DNA of 49,831 nt, taken from UHGV virus genome UHGV-0044336, one strand, 5' to 3'. How positions within the stretch are numbered: the first letter of the stretch is position 1; each line of letters starts with the position of its first letter. The DNA is from a virus. The position numbers were made by a program. Below are positions 21,001 through 27,000 of the stretch, one piece after another.

Positions 21001-24000
21001 TGCTGGAAACGCAGACCGTGGACTTCAGCGTGGGTGCAGAAGGGCTTCGCCATGTACCGGGCGATGTCATTGAAATCTGTGATGATGACTATGCGGGGAT
21101 CAGCATCGGCGGGCGCGTGCTGGCGGTGAACAACCAGACGCGGACACTGACGCTCGACCGTGAAATCACGCTGCCATCCTCCGGCACCACGCTGATAAGC
21201 CTGGCTGACGGACAGGGGAATCCGGTCAGCGTGGAGGTCCAGTCCGTCACCGACGGCGTGAAGGTAAAAGTGAGCCGTGTTCCTGACGGCGTTGCAGAAT
21301 ACAGCGTGTGGGGGCTGAAGTTGCCAACGTTGCGCCAGCGCCTGTTCCGCTGTGTGAGTATCCGTGAGAACGATGACGGCACGTATGCCATCACTGCCGT
21401 GCAGCATGTACCGGAAAAAGAGGCCATCGTGGATAACGGGGCGCACTTTGACGGCGACCAGAGCGGCACGGTGAATGGTGTCACGCCGCCAGCGGTGCAG
21501 CACCTGACTGCCGAAGTCACCGCAGACAGCGGGGAATATCAGGTGCTGGCGCGCTGGGACACGCCGAAGGTGGTGAAGGGGGTGAGCTTTATGCTTCGCC
21601 TGACCGTGGCAGCGGATGACGGCAGTGAGCGGCTGGTCAGCACGGCCCGGACGACGGAAACCACATACCGCTTCAGGCAACTGGCGCTGGGGAACTACAG
21701 GCTGACAGTCCGGGCGGTAAATGCGTGGGGGCAGCAGGGCGATCCGGCATCGGTATCGTTCCGGATTGCCGCACCGGCAGCGCCGTCGCAGATTGAGCTG
21801 ACACCGGGGTATTTTCAGATAACCGCCACGCCGCATCTTGCGGTTTATGATCCGACGGTACAGTTTGAGTTCTGGTTCTCGGAAAAGCGGATTGCGGATA
21901 TCAGGCAGGTTGAAACCACAGCACGCTATCTTGGCACGGCGCTGTACTGGATAGCCGCCAGTATCAATATCAAACCGGGCCATGATTATTATTTTTACAT
22001 CCGCAGTGTGAACACCGTTGGCAAATCGGCATTTGTGGAGGCTGTTGGCCAGCCGAGTGATGATGCATCCGGCTATCTGAATTTTTTCAAAGGAGAGATA
22101 GGGAAAACCCATCTGGCTCAGGAGTTGTGGACGCAGATTGATAACGGTCAGCTTGCGCCTGACCTGGCTGAAATCAGGACGTCCATTACGGGTGTCAGCA
22201 ATGAAATCACGCAGACCGTCAATAAGAAACTGGAAGACCAGAGTGCAGCGATCCAGCAGATACAGAAGGTTCAGGTTGATACAAATAATAACCTGAACAG
22301 CATGTGGGCTGTGAAGCTGCAGCAGATGCAGGACGGACGCCTTTATATCGCGGGTATTGGTGCCGGTGTTGAGAATACTCCTGACGGTATGCAGAGTCAG
22401 GTGCTGCTGGCGGCGGACAGGATTGCGATGATTAATCCTGCGAATGGCAACACAAAGCCGATGTTTGTTGGGCAGGGCGATCAGATATTCATGAACGAAG
22501 TGTTCCTGAAATATCTGACGGCTCCCACCATTACCAGCGGTGGCAATCCCCCAACGTTTTCACTGACACCTGATGGTCGACTTTCTGCGAAAAATGCGGA
22601 TATCAGCGGTAACGTGAACGCGAACTCCGGGACGCTCAACAACGTCACGATTAATCAGAACTGTCGGATTCTGGGAAAACTGTCAGCTAACCAGATTGAA
22701 GGTGATATTGTCAAAGCGGTGGGAAAAGCCTTTCCGAGAAATGGCAGTTATGCCAGCGGTACAATAACGGTCACTGTGTACGATGACCAGGCTTTTGACC
22801 GTCAGATAGTAGTCCCCCCCGTTCTGTTTCGTGGGGGTAAGCATGAAAACTTCAACAGCAACAACCAACAGTCATACTGGTATTCAACCTGTAAGCTGCA
22901 GGTACTGAAGAACGGACAGGAAATCTTTCAGCAACCCGCGACGGATGTCAGCAGGGTATTTTCATCAGTCATTGATATGCCTGCCGGACACGGCCATGTC
23001 ACCCTGACTTTCAATGTTTCTTCATATGGTGCTAATAACTGGACGCCAACGACCAGTATCAGCGACCTTCTTGTTGTTGTGATGAAGAAATCTACAGCCG
23101 GTATCAGTATCAGTTGAATTTTATAACCCAGATACGGGNNNNNNNNNNNNNNNNNNNNNNNNNNNNNNNNNNNNNNNNNNNNNNNNNNNNNNNNNNNNNN
23201 NNNNNNNNNNNNNNNNNNNNNNNNNNNNNNGGCGCCTTTTTTATTTGTGGAGTGAATATGGCAGTACAGATTTCAGGCGTGCTGAAAGACGGTGCAGGAA
23301 AACCGATACAGAACTGCACCATTCAGCTCAAAGCAAAACGTAACAGCACCACGGTTGTGGTGAACACGGTGGCCTCAGAAAATCCGGATGAAGCCGGACG
23401 TTACAGCATGGATGTCGAGTATGGCCAGTACAGCGTTATCCTGCTGGTTGAAGGTTTTCCGCCTTCACATGCCGGGGCCATCACCGTGTATGAGGATTCT
23501 AAGCCGGGGACATTGAATGATTTTCTGGGCGCTGCAACAGAAGATGATGTTCGTCCGGAGGCACTGTATCGTTTTGAAAAGATGGTGGAAGAGGTGGCAC
23601 GCAACGCTGAAGCCGCCTCTCAGAGCGCAGCGGCAGCAAAGAAATCAGAAACAGCAGCGGCATCGTCCAGGAATGCGGCGAAAACATCAGAGACGAATGC
23701 AGGTAACAGCGCGAAAGCGGCAGCTTCTTCAAAAACAGCCGCACAAAACGCAGCAACAGCGGCAGAACGTTCAGAGACAAATGCCCGTGCGTCAGAAGAA
23801 GCCTCCGCAGACAGTGAAGAGGCTTCCCGCCGTAATGCAGAGTCAGCCGCTGAAAATGCCGGAGTCGCCACCACAAAAGCGCGGGAGGCCGCAGCAGACG
23901 CAACAAAGGCCGGGCAGAAAAAGGATGAGGCTCTGTCGGCAGCGACACGGGCTGAAAAGGCGGCAGACCGCGCAGAAGTCGCAGCGGAAGTGACTGCAGA

Positions 24001-27000
24001 GCCCTATGCGAATATAGTGCCGCCGCTGCCTGATGTGTGGATACCGTTTAACGATTCACTGGATATGATTGCGGGTTTTTCTCCGGGCTATAAAAAAATA
24101 GCTATTGGTGACGATGTGGTTCAGGTCGCCAGTGATAAACAGGTTAATTTCAGTCGCGCATCAACGGCAACATATACCAACAAATCTGGCGAACTGAAAA
24201 CGGCGGAAATTAATGAGCCGCGATTTGAGTGTGATGGCCTGCTTATTGAGGGACAAAGAACGAACTACATGCTCAATTCGGAAAGTCCAGCCAGCTGGGG
24301 GAAGTCATCAAACATGGATGTGCCCGAAACCGGGACAGATAGTTTTGGTTTTACTTATGGAAAGTTTGTCTGCAACGATTCTCTGGTTGGGCAAACTTCG
24401 GCTATTAATATGGCATCAATTGCTGCAACAAAGTCAGTTGATGTCTCAGGCGATAACAAGTACGTGACAACCTCATGCCGTTTTAAAACAGAACGACAGG
24501 TAAGGTTACGTATACGGTTTGATAAGTATGATGGTAGTGCAACAACTTTTCTTGGCGATGCGTACATTGATACGCAAACGCTTGAAATTAATATGACAGG
24601 TGGGGCTGCCGGCAGAATTACGGCACGAGTCAGGAAGGATAAGACCACAGGCTGGATTTTTGCAGAGGCAACGATTCAGGCAATTGATGGTGAGTTAAAA
24701 ATAGGCTCTCAGATACAGTATTCTCCTGAGCGGGGTGGGGCAACAGTATCTGGTGACTATATTTATCTTGCCACCCCACAAGTAGAGAATGGGCCGTGTG
24801 TATCATCATTTATTATTTCAGGAGGCAGCGCAACGACAAGAGCCAGTGATTTGGTTAGTATCCCCACCAGAAATAATCTTTATAAGTTACCATTTACTTT
24901 TTTACTTGAGATTCATAAAAACTGGGATATTGCACCAAACGCCGCACCCCGCGTGTGGGATATAGCAGCAGCCAATACCGGGCAATCAGCAATTGCAGCA
25001 ATCAACAGAGGTAGTGGTAAGTTATATATGAGTCTGTCAAACCCTTCAGGCTTGTATGTTAATAGCGCAGCGACAGATGTATTTGCAGAGAAAACCACAT
25101 TTGGATGTATTGCAAAAGCTGATGGTCACTTTCATGTGGTGACAAATGGTAAAGCGGTTAATGAAGTTTATTGTGAATATAATGGTGTGACCGCTGATAA
25201 AAATATCCGATTTGGAGGGCAGACGAATACTGGAGAACGACATCTGTTTGGCCATATTCGCAATTTCCGCATATGGCATAAAGAATTAAATGACAGGCAA
25301 TTAAAAGAGGTCGTATGAAAGATTTAACTTTGAAGTTTCATGACAAACTGCAGTTTAAGGCCTTCCTGTCATCTCTTGACTGGGAGGAGGATGAAGACCT
25401 CCAGAATAAACTGTTAGTCGATGAAATTGGTTTCACCTACACAGAAACAGGGGTAACAGAAGAGGGAGAACCTGTCTGTGTCCGGAATGACGGTTATTTT
25501 GTCAACATTCGCATTCTTGATGACTTGTTTGATGTTTCTGTATTCTCTGATTATGTCGTGGAGCTGGAAACACCGCTTCGGGAATGGAGCTGAAAGGAGG
25601 AAATAATGGATATAAGCCCCTTACTTCATGCGCTTTGTGCTGTGGCTGCGCAGATACTGGTTGGTCTTTTTACCGGAAACTGGGCTTACGGAGCGATAGC
25701 CGGTTGTACGTTCTTCATTGCGCGTGAACATACCCAGGCAGAATATCGCTGGATTGAAATGTTCGGGCATGGCAAGCGAATGAATATGCCGTGGTGGGGC
25801 GGTTTTGATCCGCGAGCTTGGGATGTGGCAAGCCTGATGGATTTTGCTGTGCCGGTGGTGGCGTGTCTGCTGGTCTGGCTGTTGGTTAATCGTGGGTGAA
25901 AAAAGGTGAGCTGTATATGCAACGGAGGAAGAAACCCCGTTGCTGGAAGCCAGGAAAAAGTATCGGGTGTTGCTGTCCTCGGATGTTGTGCTAATTGGGT
26001 GATAACAGATCCTGTGTATGGGAGTTTCCCTTTTTGCGTGCGTTGATGCTGGTAACGGCAAACGTCATGATGAACAAAACCGCGAATAAGACGACAATCG
26101 TCGGAGCTGGTGCGCTGTCGATAAAAAAGGACAACCAGACACCAGTCATTGACACTATTACCGATATGCCAGTCGCCAGTAGGAGCGCAATATGAAAGCG
26201 TTGTGTCAGGAGTACCGCAATGGCGCCAGGCGCAATGAGCAGAGAAATGGAGAGAATGATACCTACCGCTTTCAGCGTCGCCACAATGGTCAGAGAGACC
26301 ATGCACAGCAGCCCATAATGCAGCCATCTCGTATGCAAACCGCTTACCTGCGCCTGTTGATAATCAAAGCTGAACAGCAAAAAATCCCGCCATTTTACGC
26401 TAATAACAAGTGTAACCAGCCCGGCAATAATCATCGTCTGGATTATATCGCCGATGGTTATCCCGAGCATGTCGCCGAAAAGAATATGGTCAAGATGTAC
26501 GTCTGGTTTGACTGCAATATACAAGATCAGACCTGCGGCAAACATGCCAGAAAAAACAATCCCCATCACTGTATCTTGCTTGATTCGGCTGTTGTCTTTC
26601 AGGTATCCCGTCGCCACCGCGCAGAATACTCCGGCGACGAATGCCCCTGTAGCCAAAGGTAACCCCAGAATCCAGGCAAGCACGATTCCAGGAAAAACCG
26701 CATGACTCATCGCGTCACCCATCAGTGCCCAACCTTTCAGGACCAGAAAGACCGACAGCAGCGCACAGGGTATGGAAACTACCAGTGAAATCAGCAGTGC
26801 GTGACTCATAAAGGTGAACTGCAGTGGCTCCAGTAATAATGCCATCATGAGCGATCCTCCAGCGCCTTATGCGCACGCCGACGATTTGCCAAAAGCCCAT
26901 GGGTGGGCGCAAAGACAAATGCTAAAAGAAACAGCAGTGTCTGCGCCACCACGATGATTCCACCTGTCGCGCCGTCCAGAAAGTAACTGACCCACGCGCC

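Follow-up and report, generated by a model that had tools for sequence, protein, structure and literature searches.

The stretch of DNA analysed here is the virus genome UHGV-0044336 (49,831 nucleotides, referred to below in its whole length as the window), and the subject is the side tail fibre gene of this phage together with the small genes that follow it. All of them lie on the plus strand, immediately downstream of gene J (19635–23117), an open reading frame (ORF) of 1160 codons annotated as 'central tail fiber' in Escherichia phage 21. The side tail fibre gene, stf (23258–25318), is intact and comprises 686 codons from the ATG at 23258 to the stop codon at 25316–25318; its product is 100% identical to the 'side tail fiber' CPT_21_22 of phage 21 and matched the tail-protein families phrog_1419 and phrog_3279 in a PHROG search. 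It is followed by orf92 (25315–25593), which encodes a small acidic protein of 92 residues and appears to be translationally coupled to stf, the stop codon of which it overlaps by four nucleotides (ATGA), and by orf97 (25606–25899), which encodes a small membrane protein of 97 residues (phrog_1443; 'putative membrane protein, 2 TMDs', i.e., two transmembrane domains, in phage 21) and has its own AGGAGG ribosome-binding site. With the exception of a run of N upstream of stf, the interval 23000–26100 was 100.0% identical to Escherichia phage 21 (OL657228), in which the three genes are named 'side tail fiber', 'hypothetical protein' and 'putative membrane protein', respectively. This identity over the whole block shows that stf is genuine and conserved, and that the ORF did not arise by chance. 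Taken jointly with the interpretation developed below, it is likely that the product of 23258–25318 serves as side tail fibre in a lambdoid phage of the phage 21 type.

As a gene, stf is not new: its sequence has been published and annotated (PMC9119081), PHROGs and NCBIfam already have names for its domains, and fibre cassettes of mosaic build are a familiar phenomenon. Our literature search found no characterised fibre with this tip and no function for phage 21 Stf. The block is common in Escherichia coli. At least 80% of the stf–orf92–orf97 block was held by 450 of the 5,426 complete E. coli genomes, and 309 E. coli records contained it at 99% identity or more; the carriers include S88, UM146, IHE3034, NU14 and ABU 83972, and many of them are extraintestinal pathogens. 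The 90% protein cluster of the 686-residue fibre has 2,232 member sequences. The window runs in virion order, continues beyond attP into int and exceeds phage 21 in length by approximately 7 kb. Two tRNAs are described in the genome paper of phage 21 (PMC9119081), and ARAGORN found no tRNA gene in the whole window; together with the order and the extra length, this indicates that the source is a relative of phage 21 and not phage 21 itself.

The 5′ part of stf encodes a lambda-type module (residues 1–131; 23258–23650, plus strand) that matched PF08400 with an E-value of 1e-68 (230 bits, cutoff 26.6). Residues 1–158 were 74% identical to lambda orf-401, and residues 1–94 matched the lambda Stf collar chain (PDB 9E7M/9MGH) at 1e-49. 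In Ur-lambda, twelve copies of this collar domain surround the junction of the tail tube and the tip and hold four trimeric fibres via flexible linkers, and Stf residues 102–393 form the proximal coiled coil (PMC12617516). Residues 1–94 of the present fibre are thus the collar domain, which would dock on the tail tip. The shaft that follows (residues ~102–252; 23561–24013, plus strand) was delimited by its composition and its alignment to lambda Stf. Residues 106–252 consist of 35% Ala, 14% Glu and 11% Ser, and residues 134–240 aligned to lambda Stf 239–345 with 53% identity over 107 residues, inside the proximal coiled coil of lambda. The shaft is therefore a shortened form of that of lambda and probably a trimeric coiled coil.

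Similarity to the lambda fibre ended within this shaft, and none was found from residue ~253 onwards. BLASTP against the distal lambda orf-314 detected no similarity (best E-value 1.2), and the Pfam and PHROG results for the fibre contained no gp37-type family. The distal half begins with a conserved joint (residues 253–294; 24014–24139, plus strand; PLPDVWIPFNDSLDM...), which was defined by invariant alignment columns and by the start of homology to a P2-like fibre, and which marks the left end of an exchangeable cassette. Two domains, designated D1 and D2, complete the tip. D1 (residues 295–545; 24140–24892, plus strand) has a variable middle at residues ~350–497 and is of the type found in the head spike fibre of a gene transfer agent (GTA): residues 329–529 fell in the NCBIfam family NF048003 'phage head spike fiber domain' (55.3 bits against a cutoff of 36; E-value 1e-14), and a single-sequence phmmer search against PDB sequences matched Rcc01080 of the Rhodobacter capsulatus GTA at 1e-9. 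When a profile of 25 trimmed relatives (26%–71% identity) was used against the PDB, Rcc01080 was matched over its residues 43–280 at 1.7e-37, the baseplate wedge proteins E217 gp45 and Pa193 gp46 at approximately 6e-13 and a gp17 tail fibre at 4e-12. D2 (residues 546–686; 24893–25318, plus strand), which ends in RHLFGHIRNFRIWHKELNDRQLKEVV, is assigned to the laminin G (LamG)/concanavalin A (ConA)-like lectin type. The Pfam family Laminin_G_3 (PF13385) matched 21 of the 25 relatives (best 6e-12), and the last 160 positions of the profile matched the lectin-like subdomain of botulinum neurotoxin (BoNT) Hc at 9e-4 and pentraxins weakly. A search of 1.84 billion representatives yielded 2,522 relatives of the tip, in which Stf residues 255–350 and 497–685 form a conserved frame around the variable middle. 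On these profiles, D1 is a homologue of the domain in GTA head spike fibres, with a score above the family cutoff, and D2 is probably a LamG/ConA-like jellyroll lectin-type domain. The domain search of the distal half thus detected no standard lambda- or T4-type tip.

We infer the receptor-binding and host-range roles of the tip from homology. Rcc01080 binds capsule polysaccharide (PMC7296036, PMC10218006), and the LPS (lipopolysaccharide) core sugar binding of the lambda-like Stf of Gifsy-1 provides a precedent for a saccharide receptor (PMC12312913). Several points weigh against a saccharide-binding tip built in this way. Binding of saccharide is suggested by one characterised homologue and by the class of fold, and in the structure 6TB9 only residues 2–10 of Rcc01080 are resolved, so that the part homologous to D1 has no solved structure. 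On the 686-residue fibre itself, Laminin_G_3 scored 23.9–25.1 bits (E-value 5e-5), below the Pfam cutoff of 27.6. An AlphaFold2 model of the tip (residues 251–686, with 19 close relatives) was all-beta but of low confidence, with a predicted local distance difference test (pLDDT) score of 48; the domain limits were therefore taken from the sequence profiles, and the Foldseek matches of this model to laminin G-like (LG) domains, CBM40, BoNT Hc and C-reactive protein (CRP) jellyrolls, although in line with the profiles, carry little weight. The likeness to Rcc01080 does not extend to the mode of docking. An N-terminal Ile/Leu-Gly repeat attaches Rcc01080 to the pentameric head spike base (PMC7296036), whereas the present fibre has no such repeat, its N-terminus being the MAVQISGVLKDG... 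of PF08400.

Two other kinds of target activity were considered for the tip. It is unlikely that D1 and D2 bind an outer membrane protein, as the lambda and T4 tips bind OmpC. The Stf of Ur-lambda does bind OmpC (PMC12617516), LamG/ConA-like jellyrolls also make protein contacts, and the matched BoNT Hc binds gangliosides as well as proteins. However, the sole characterised homologue of D1 binds capsule polysaccharide, and the folds nearest to the tip are those of carbohydrate-binding modules, pentraxins and LG domains. Strains with many different O and K types share the exact stf allele, which would fit a conserved receptor, but the conserved LPS core accounts for this spread equally well. 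An enzymatic tip, i.e., a ConA-like glycanase or lyase of the glucanase superfamily that would make the fibre a capsule or O-antigen depolymerase, appears very improbable. Many fibres of phages infecting capsulated E. coli are depolymerases, and the Pfam clan of D2 includes glucanases. Nevertheless, searches of Pfam, NCBIfam and the PDB gave no match to a glycoside hydrolase or lyase family, the 'depolymerase' matches in the PDB were confined to the Ala-rich shaft at E-values of approximately 0.1, and a conserved acidic catalytic pair was not identified. A lectin-type tip that contacts a surface saccharide is thus preferred here.

The tip is not bound to a lambda-type fibre. The same tip was found behind at least four fibre N-termini, namely, PF08400 (lambda type), PF12571 (P2 gpH type), PF03406 and an unrelated N-terminus of 146 residues in Leclercia, Enterobacter and a metagenomic contig. 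A P2-like prophage (L003) had, in the position of gpH, a fibre that was 85% identical from residue 236 onwards and was followed by the same genes of 92 and 97 codons and then by the remnant of a Caudo_TAP gene; the tip, orf92 and orf97 accordingly form one block in a P2-like myovirus, with protein identities of 85%–90%. The DNA homology of this prophage begins at the codons for PLPDVWIPFNDS, at approximately position 24030 of the window (the alignment covered the prophage from this point onwards), BLASTP places the left limit of homology between the two fibres near residue 248, and the DNA homology stops exactly at the stop codon of orf97 at 25899. Among 81 loci, in which domain and gene types were clustered at 80% identity, there were five D1, six D2, three orf92 and two orf97 types, and the N-terminus, D1, D2, orf92 and orf97 occurred in 14 combinations; D2 type B, for example, stood behind three different D1 types. 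These combinations place one breakpoint at the joint, another between the two domains of the tip and others on either side of orf92. Hence, the tip, orf92 and, in Escherichia, orf97 are exchanged among siphoviruses of the lambda kind, myoviruses of the P2 kind and a phage-plasmid that is also a myovirus. The G+C content follows a similar division, with values of 0.52 in the N-terminal part, 0.59 in the shaft, 0.45 in D1, 0.41 in D2, 0.43 in orf92 and 0.53 in orf97; the drop is real and extends from D1 through orf92. An earlier note on this DNA, made from the sequence alone, had described a mosaic fibre in which approximately 130 lambda Stf-like residues and an Ala/Ser/Glu-rich shaft lead into a C-terminal region of lower G+C that differs from the distal part of lambda Stf and represents a swapped module. 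All of these elements were borne out by the comparisons above.

The same note had held that the 92-residue downstream product is not a typical Tfa, and this also proved correct. The orf92 product had no match in Pfam, NCBIfam or PADLOC and none to Caudo_TAP (PF02413), and it did not align with lambda Tfa. It belongs to the function-unknown family phrog_1361. Its AlphaFold model, with a pLDDT of 90, has an alpha/beta fold that was unmatched and differs from the Tfa-type fold. The pattern of conservation is clear across the alignment, and with the confident model this marks orf92 as encoding a real protein. A wider alignment used as a profile against the PDB, and its members against Pfam, found no relative, and the wider profile collected 970 clusters in which each listed name was 'hypothetical protein' and no Pfam domain was present.

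In all 81 loci examined, orf92 overlapped the stop codon of a fibre gene with a D1–D2 tip, by four nucleotides in 80 and by one nucleotide in the remaining locus. More distant tips in Leclercia, Silvania, Buttiauxella and Aeromonas, with 28%–32% identity in most loci, showed the same arrangement, i.e., a fibre gene followed by an acidic ORF of 93–104 residues with an isoelectric point of 4.1–4.9 and an overlap of one or four nucleotides; in two Aeromonas loci, the acidic ORF was not directly adjacent to the fibre gene. When the E. coli orf92 profile was searched against 1,247 ORFs, it matched those of Enterobacteriaceae (Leclercia, Silvania, Buttiauxella and Enterobacter) at 2e-14 to 4e-10 and those of three Aeromonas loci at 5e-4 to 3e-3. 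The homologues have the motifs GY[FH]VN.R and P.R.WA in common, and a metagenomic lambda-like contig also carried an orf92-type ORF directly after the tip. Separately, a 2.8-kb contig labelled as a Collinsella sp. metagenome-assembled genome (L096) contained an Escherichia-type tip and an orf92 homologue (E-value 9e-36); its actinobacterial label is probably a result of binning contamination.

Such a persistent, translationally coupled adjacency across genera, tail types and fibre N-termini is the classical signature of a fibre partner. We consider it somewhat better than an even chance that orf92 encodes an assembly factor or a subunit bound to the tip, and about an even one that its family is an undescribed class of fibre partners for D1–LamG tips, which would do the job of Tfa, gp38 or U proteins by recognising a conserved element of the tip. 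An early view of four loci, in which orf92 seemed to covary with D2, was rejected on the basis of the 81 loci, where one orf92 type pairs with four D2 types. This result also tells against a partner role: the orf92 type in question (at least 90% identical) accompanies D2 types that are mutually only 42%–47% identical. In addition, the constant adjacency of orf92 and the tip could in principle reflect hitch-hiking. Because a single orf92 type spans four D2 types, its product cannot read the variable surface of the tip, and the idea of a surface-specific chaperone was dropped.

Alternatively, orf92, with or without orf97, might be a passenger gene linked to the fibre, such as a moron for lysogenic conversion or anti-defence. 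This end of lambdoid genomes gathers morons (sitABCD here and cdtABC in relatives), orf92 resembles none of the known chaperones and does not covary with the variable tip, and orf97 is dispensable for the arrangement. We nevertheless regard this explanation as rather unlikely. A scan for promoters and terminators across 22900–26200 found nothing above chance, so there is no sign that orf92 or orf97 is transcribed separately as a moron, and orf92 overlaps the fibre stop codon throughout. It has no match in PADLOC, and it has stayed beside the tip in several genera, behind four N-termini and with either type of tail, whereas whatever lies downstream varies. Linkage alone seldom outlasts divergence to 28%–32% identity.

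In several relatives, a second short fibre-like gene was observed after the acidic gene (locus L010, 6163–7732; L093, 4614–5654; L098, 4557–5414; L108, 5315–6178; and L110, 5313–6311), with a C-terminus of the Gp34_trimer, Phage_tail_C_2 or Peptidase_S74 type. This gene hints at a two-fibre arrangement that has no counterpart in phage 21. It is conceivable that orf92 encodes an adaptor which docks such a second fibre on the LamG tip to give a branched fibre, and that the second fibre was lost in phage 21. The immediate succession of the small gene and a fibre-like gene of 234–346 residues in Escherichia ruysiae, Escherichia sp. E1V33, the phage-plasmid, Leclercia, Silvania, Enterobacter and the metagenomic contig would fit this arrangement; however, orf92 at 90%–100% identity is present without a second fibre in phage 21, the CDT (cytolethal distending toxin) prophages and the P2-like prophage, which makes an adaptor function quite improbable. 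A partner of the tip itself remains the preferred role for orf92, and this partner family is the sole fresh lead from the locus.

The adjoining orf97 behaves differently from the genes before it. It was 76%–100% identical among Escherichia loci whatever the type of tip, whereas the upstream tip varied down to 42%, and it was restricted to Escherichia loci, being missing in the phage-plasmid, in loci L010 and L011 and in the distant genera. It forms the right end of the block common to the phage 21-type locus and the P2-like prophage. PADLOC gave no match for orf97, and a function in receptor masking or exclusion would be a guess. Directly after the fibre cassette lies a moron on the minus strand, the iron/manganese transporter operon sitDCBA (25991–29440), the place of which is taken by cdtABC in those CDT prophages that carry this type of fibre (L006–L008).

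Upstream of stf, 140 bases separate the end of J (23117) from the start codon at 23258, including a run of 92 N at 23139–23230, the position given in the earlier note. The note had further suggested that this run hides the J–stf junction where lambda carries lom, which turned out not to be the case. The flanks of the run were identical in phage 21 and E. coli ZJ3920, and in both genomes the 92 N correspond to ten nucleotides, CGCCAGAAAT, giving a true J–stf spacer of 58 bp. These ten nucleotides form the 5′ arm and the loop of the hairpin GGGCGCCAGAAATGGCGCC. A stretch of six T (T6) comes after this hairpin, which is annotated as a terminator in phage 21 and folds at −20.7 kcal/mol (z = −4.0). 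The feature at 23136–23242 (plus strand) is thus a J–stf spacer with an intrinsic terminator hairpin broken by the gap, as judged from the alignment with phage 21 and ZJ3920, the phage 21 annotation and the RNA fold. A second run, of 16 N (31456–31471), lies within the icd-like segment adjoining attP. The same 13-mer, TGACTTCGAACGT, flanks it on both sides and is present as a single copy in phage 21, which marks the flanks as unmerged contig ends. It follows that the two runs are scaffold gaps, each with an arbitrary number of N. The possibility of a gene inserted at the 92-N run was rejected, given the ten nucleotides in genomes with identical flanks and the duplicated contig ends at the second run. 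Since the real spacer is only 58 bp, no lom can fit there. CDT-converting prophages do carry lom in the J–stf interval, ahead of a fibre of this type, and its absence here is therefore a feature of the lineage.

Two further observations concern the integrity of stf in other records. RefSeq cuts the intact 686-codon ORF into an 'incomplete' N-terminal pseudogene and a separate 'phage head spike fiber domain-containing protein', the second part taking an in-frame internal Met as its start, as in E. coli ZJ3920 (L002, 6177–8237) and many other genomes. This split is an annotation artefact caused by the mosaic architecture. In Escherichia phage 1W (L005, 6105–8740), by contrast with the intact gene, stf is cut at approximately codon 643 by an IS66-type insertion element comprising three mobile-element ORFs; phages 3W, 4A7 and Lambda_4C10 have such an interruption as well, and orf92, orf97 and sitD come after it. 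As these phages were isolated and are viable with an interrupted stf, an intact fibre is dispensable for plaque growth, as in lambda PaPa; at least, the isolates suggest as much.

Based on these findings, the following mode of action can be proposed. The N-terminal collar domain would dock the fibre on the tail tip as in Ur-lambda, where four trimeric fibres are held. The fibre could then make a fast and reversible first contact with a surface saccharide, which may be LPS core, O antigen or capsule. The receptor of phage 21 J is LamB, and host-range work on phage 21 covers J and LamB, OmpC and OmpF only. Saccharide contact might raise the chance that J subsequently reaches LamB and so speed up the engagement of J with its receptor, while the fibre, like that of lambda, would be non-essential for plaque formation. 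The orf92 product would be made in step with the fibre and could be either a factor that assembles the tip or a small protein attached to a conserved part of it; it would replace the Tfa-type chaperone of lambda- and T4-type tips.

The stf gene itself is nothing categorically new but a textbook example of mosaicism, found in the tail fibre of a classical phage. The tip type is common: approximately 8% of complete E. coli genomes have it, and many of these belong to extraintestinal pathogens with a sitABCD prophage; the missing receptor for so widespread a tip limits the prediction of host range for these prophages. Grafts of the tip onto lambda or P2 delivery particles should include orf92, the one gene that is never parted from it. 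The split of the fibre gene in RefSeq, which affects hundreds of genomes, can mislead automated analyses.

Among known systems, Stf and Tfa of Ur-lambda are similar in the position of the fibre gene after J, in the collar, which is shared at the identity given above, and in the related Ala-rich shaft; presumably, the present phage also has four trimeric, non-essential fibres that speed up adsorption. It differs from Ur-lambda in having no lom between J and stf and a shaft shorter by approximately 145 residues, and in bearing two lectin-like globular domains where lambda has a T4 gp37-like tip with OmpC as its receptor. The gene downstream encodes an acidic protein of 92 residues, whereas Tfa of Ur-lambda has 194. 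The GTA protein Rcc01080 is homologous to D1 and has in common with it the motifs (S/T)RA(S/T)xATY in the first strand and TRAxDL in the last. Unlike the present fibre, it is a single chain that docks at the head vertex via its N-terminal Leu-Gly repeat and has no LamG domain after D1; here, D1 is located near the end of a putatively trimeric tail fibre and is followed by D2. E217 gp45 and Pa193 gp46 likewise place a D1-homologous domain (chain residues ~193–425) at the periphery of the particle, but they are subunits of the myovirus baseplate wedge (triplex) that carry the fibre attachment loop and are not fibre tips.

The closest parallel in organisation is provided by the cassettes of P2, Mu, P1, lambda and T-even phages (H/G, S/U, Stf/Tfa and gp37/gp38), in which the distal fibre and the next small gene move together, also between unrelated tail types and with breakpoints at conserved joints. 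Engineered Stf chimeras of lambda and P2 are functional. The cassette described here departs from these systems in its second gene, as orf92 is not of the Caudo_TAP or gp38 type and has neither a Pfam entry nor a solved relative, and in its first, the tip of which appears to be built of globular lectin-like domains.

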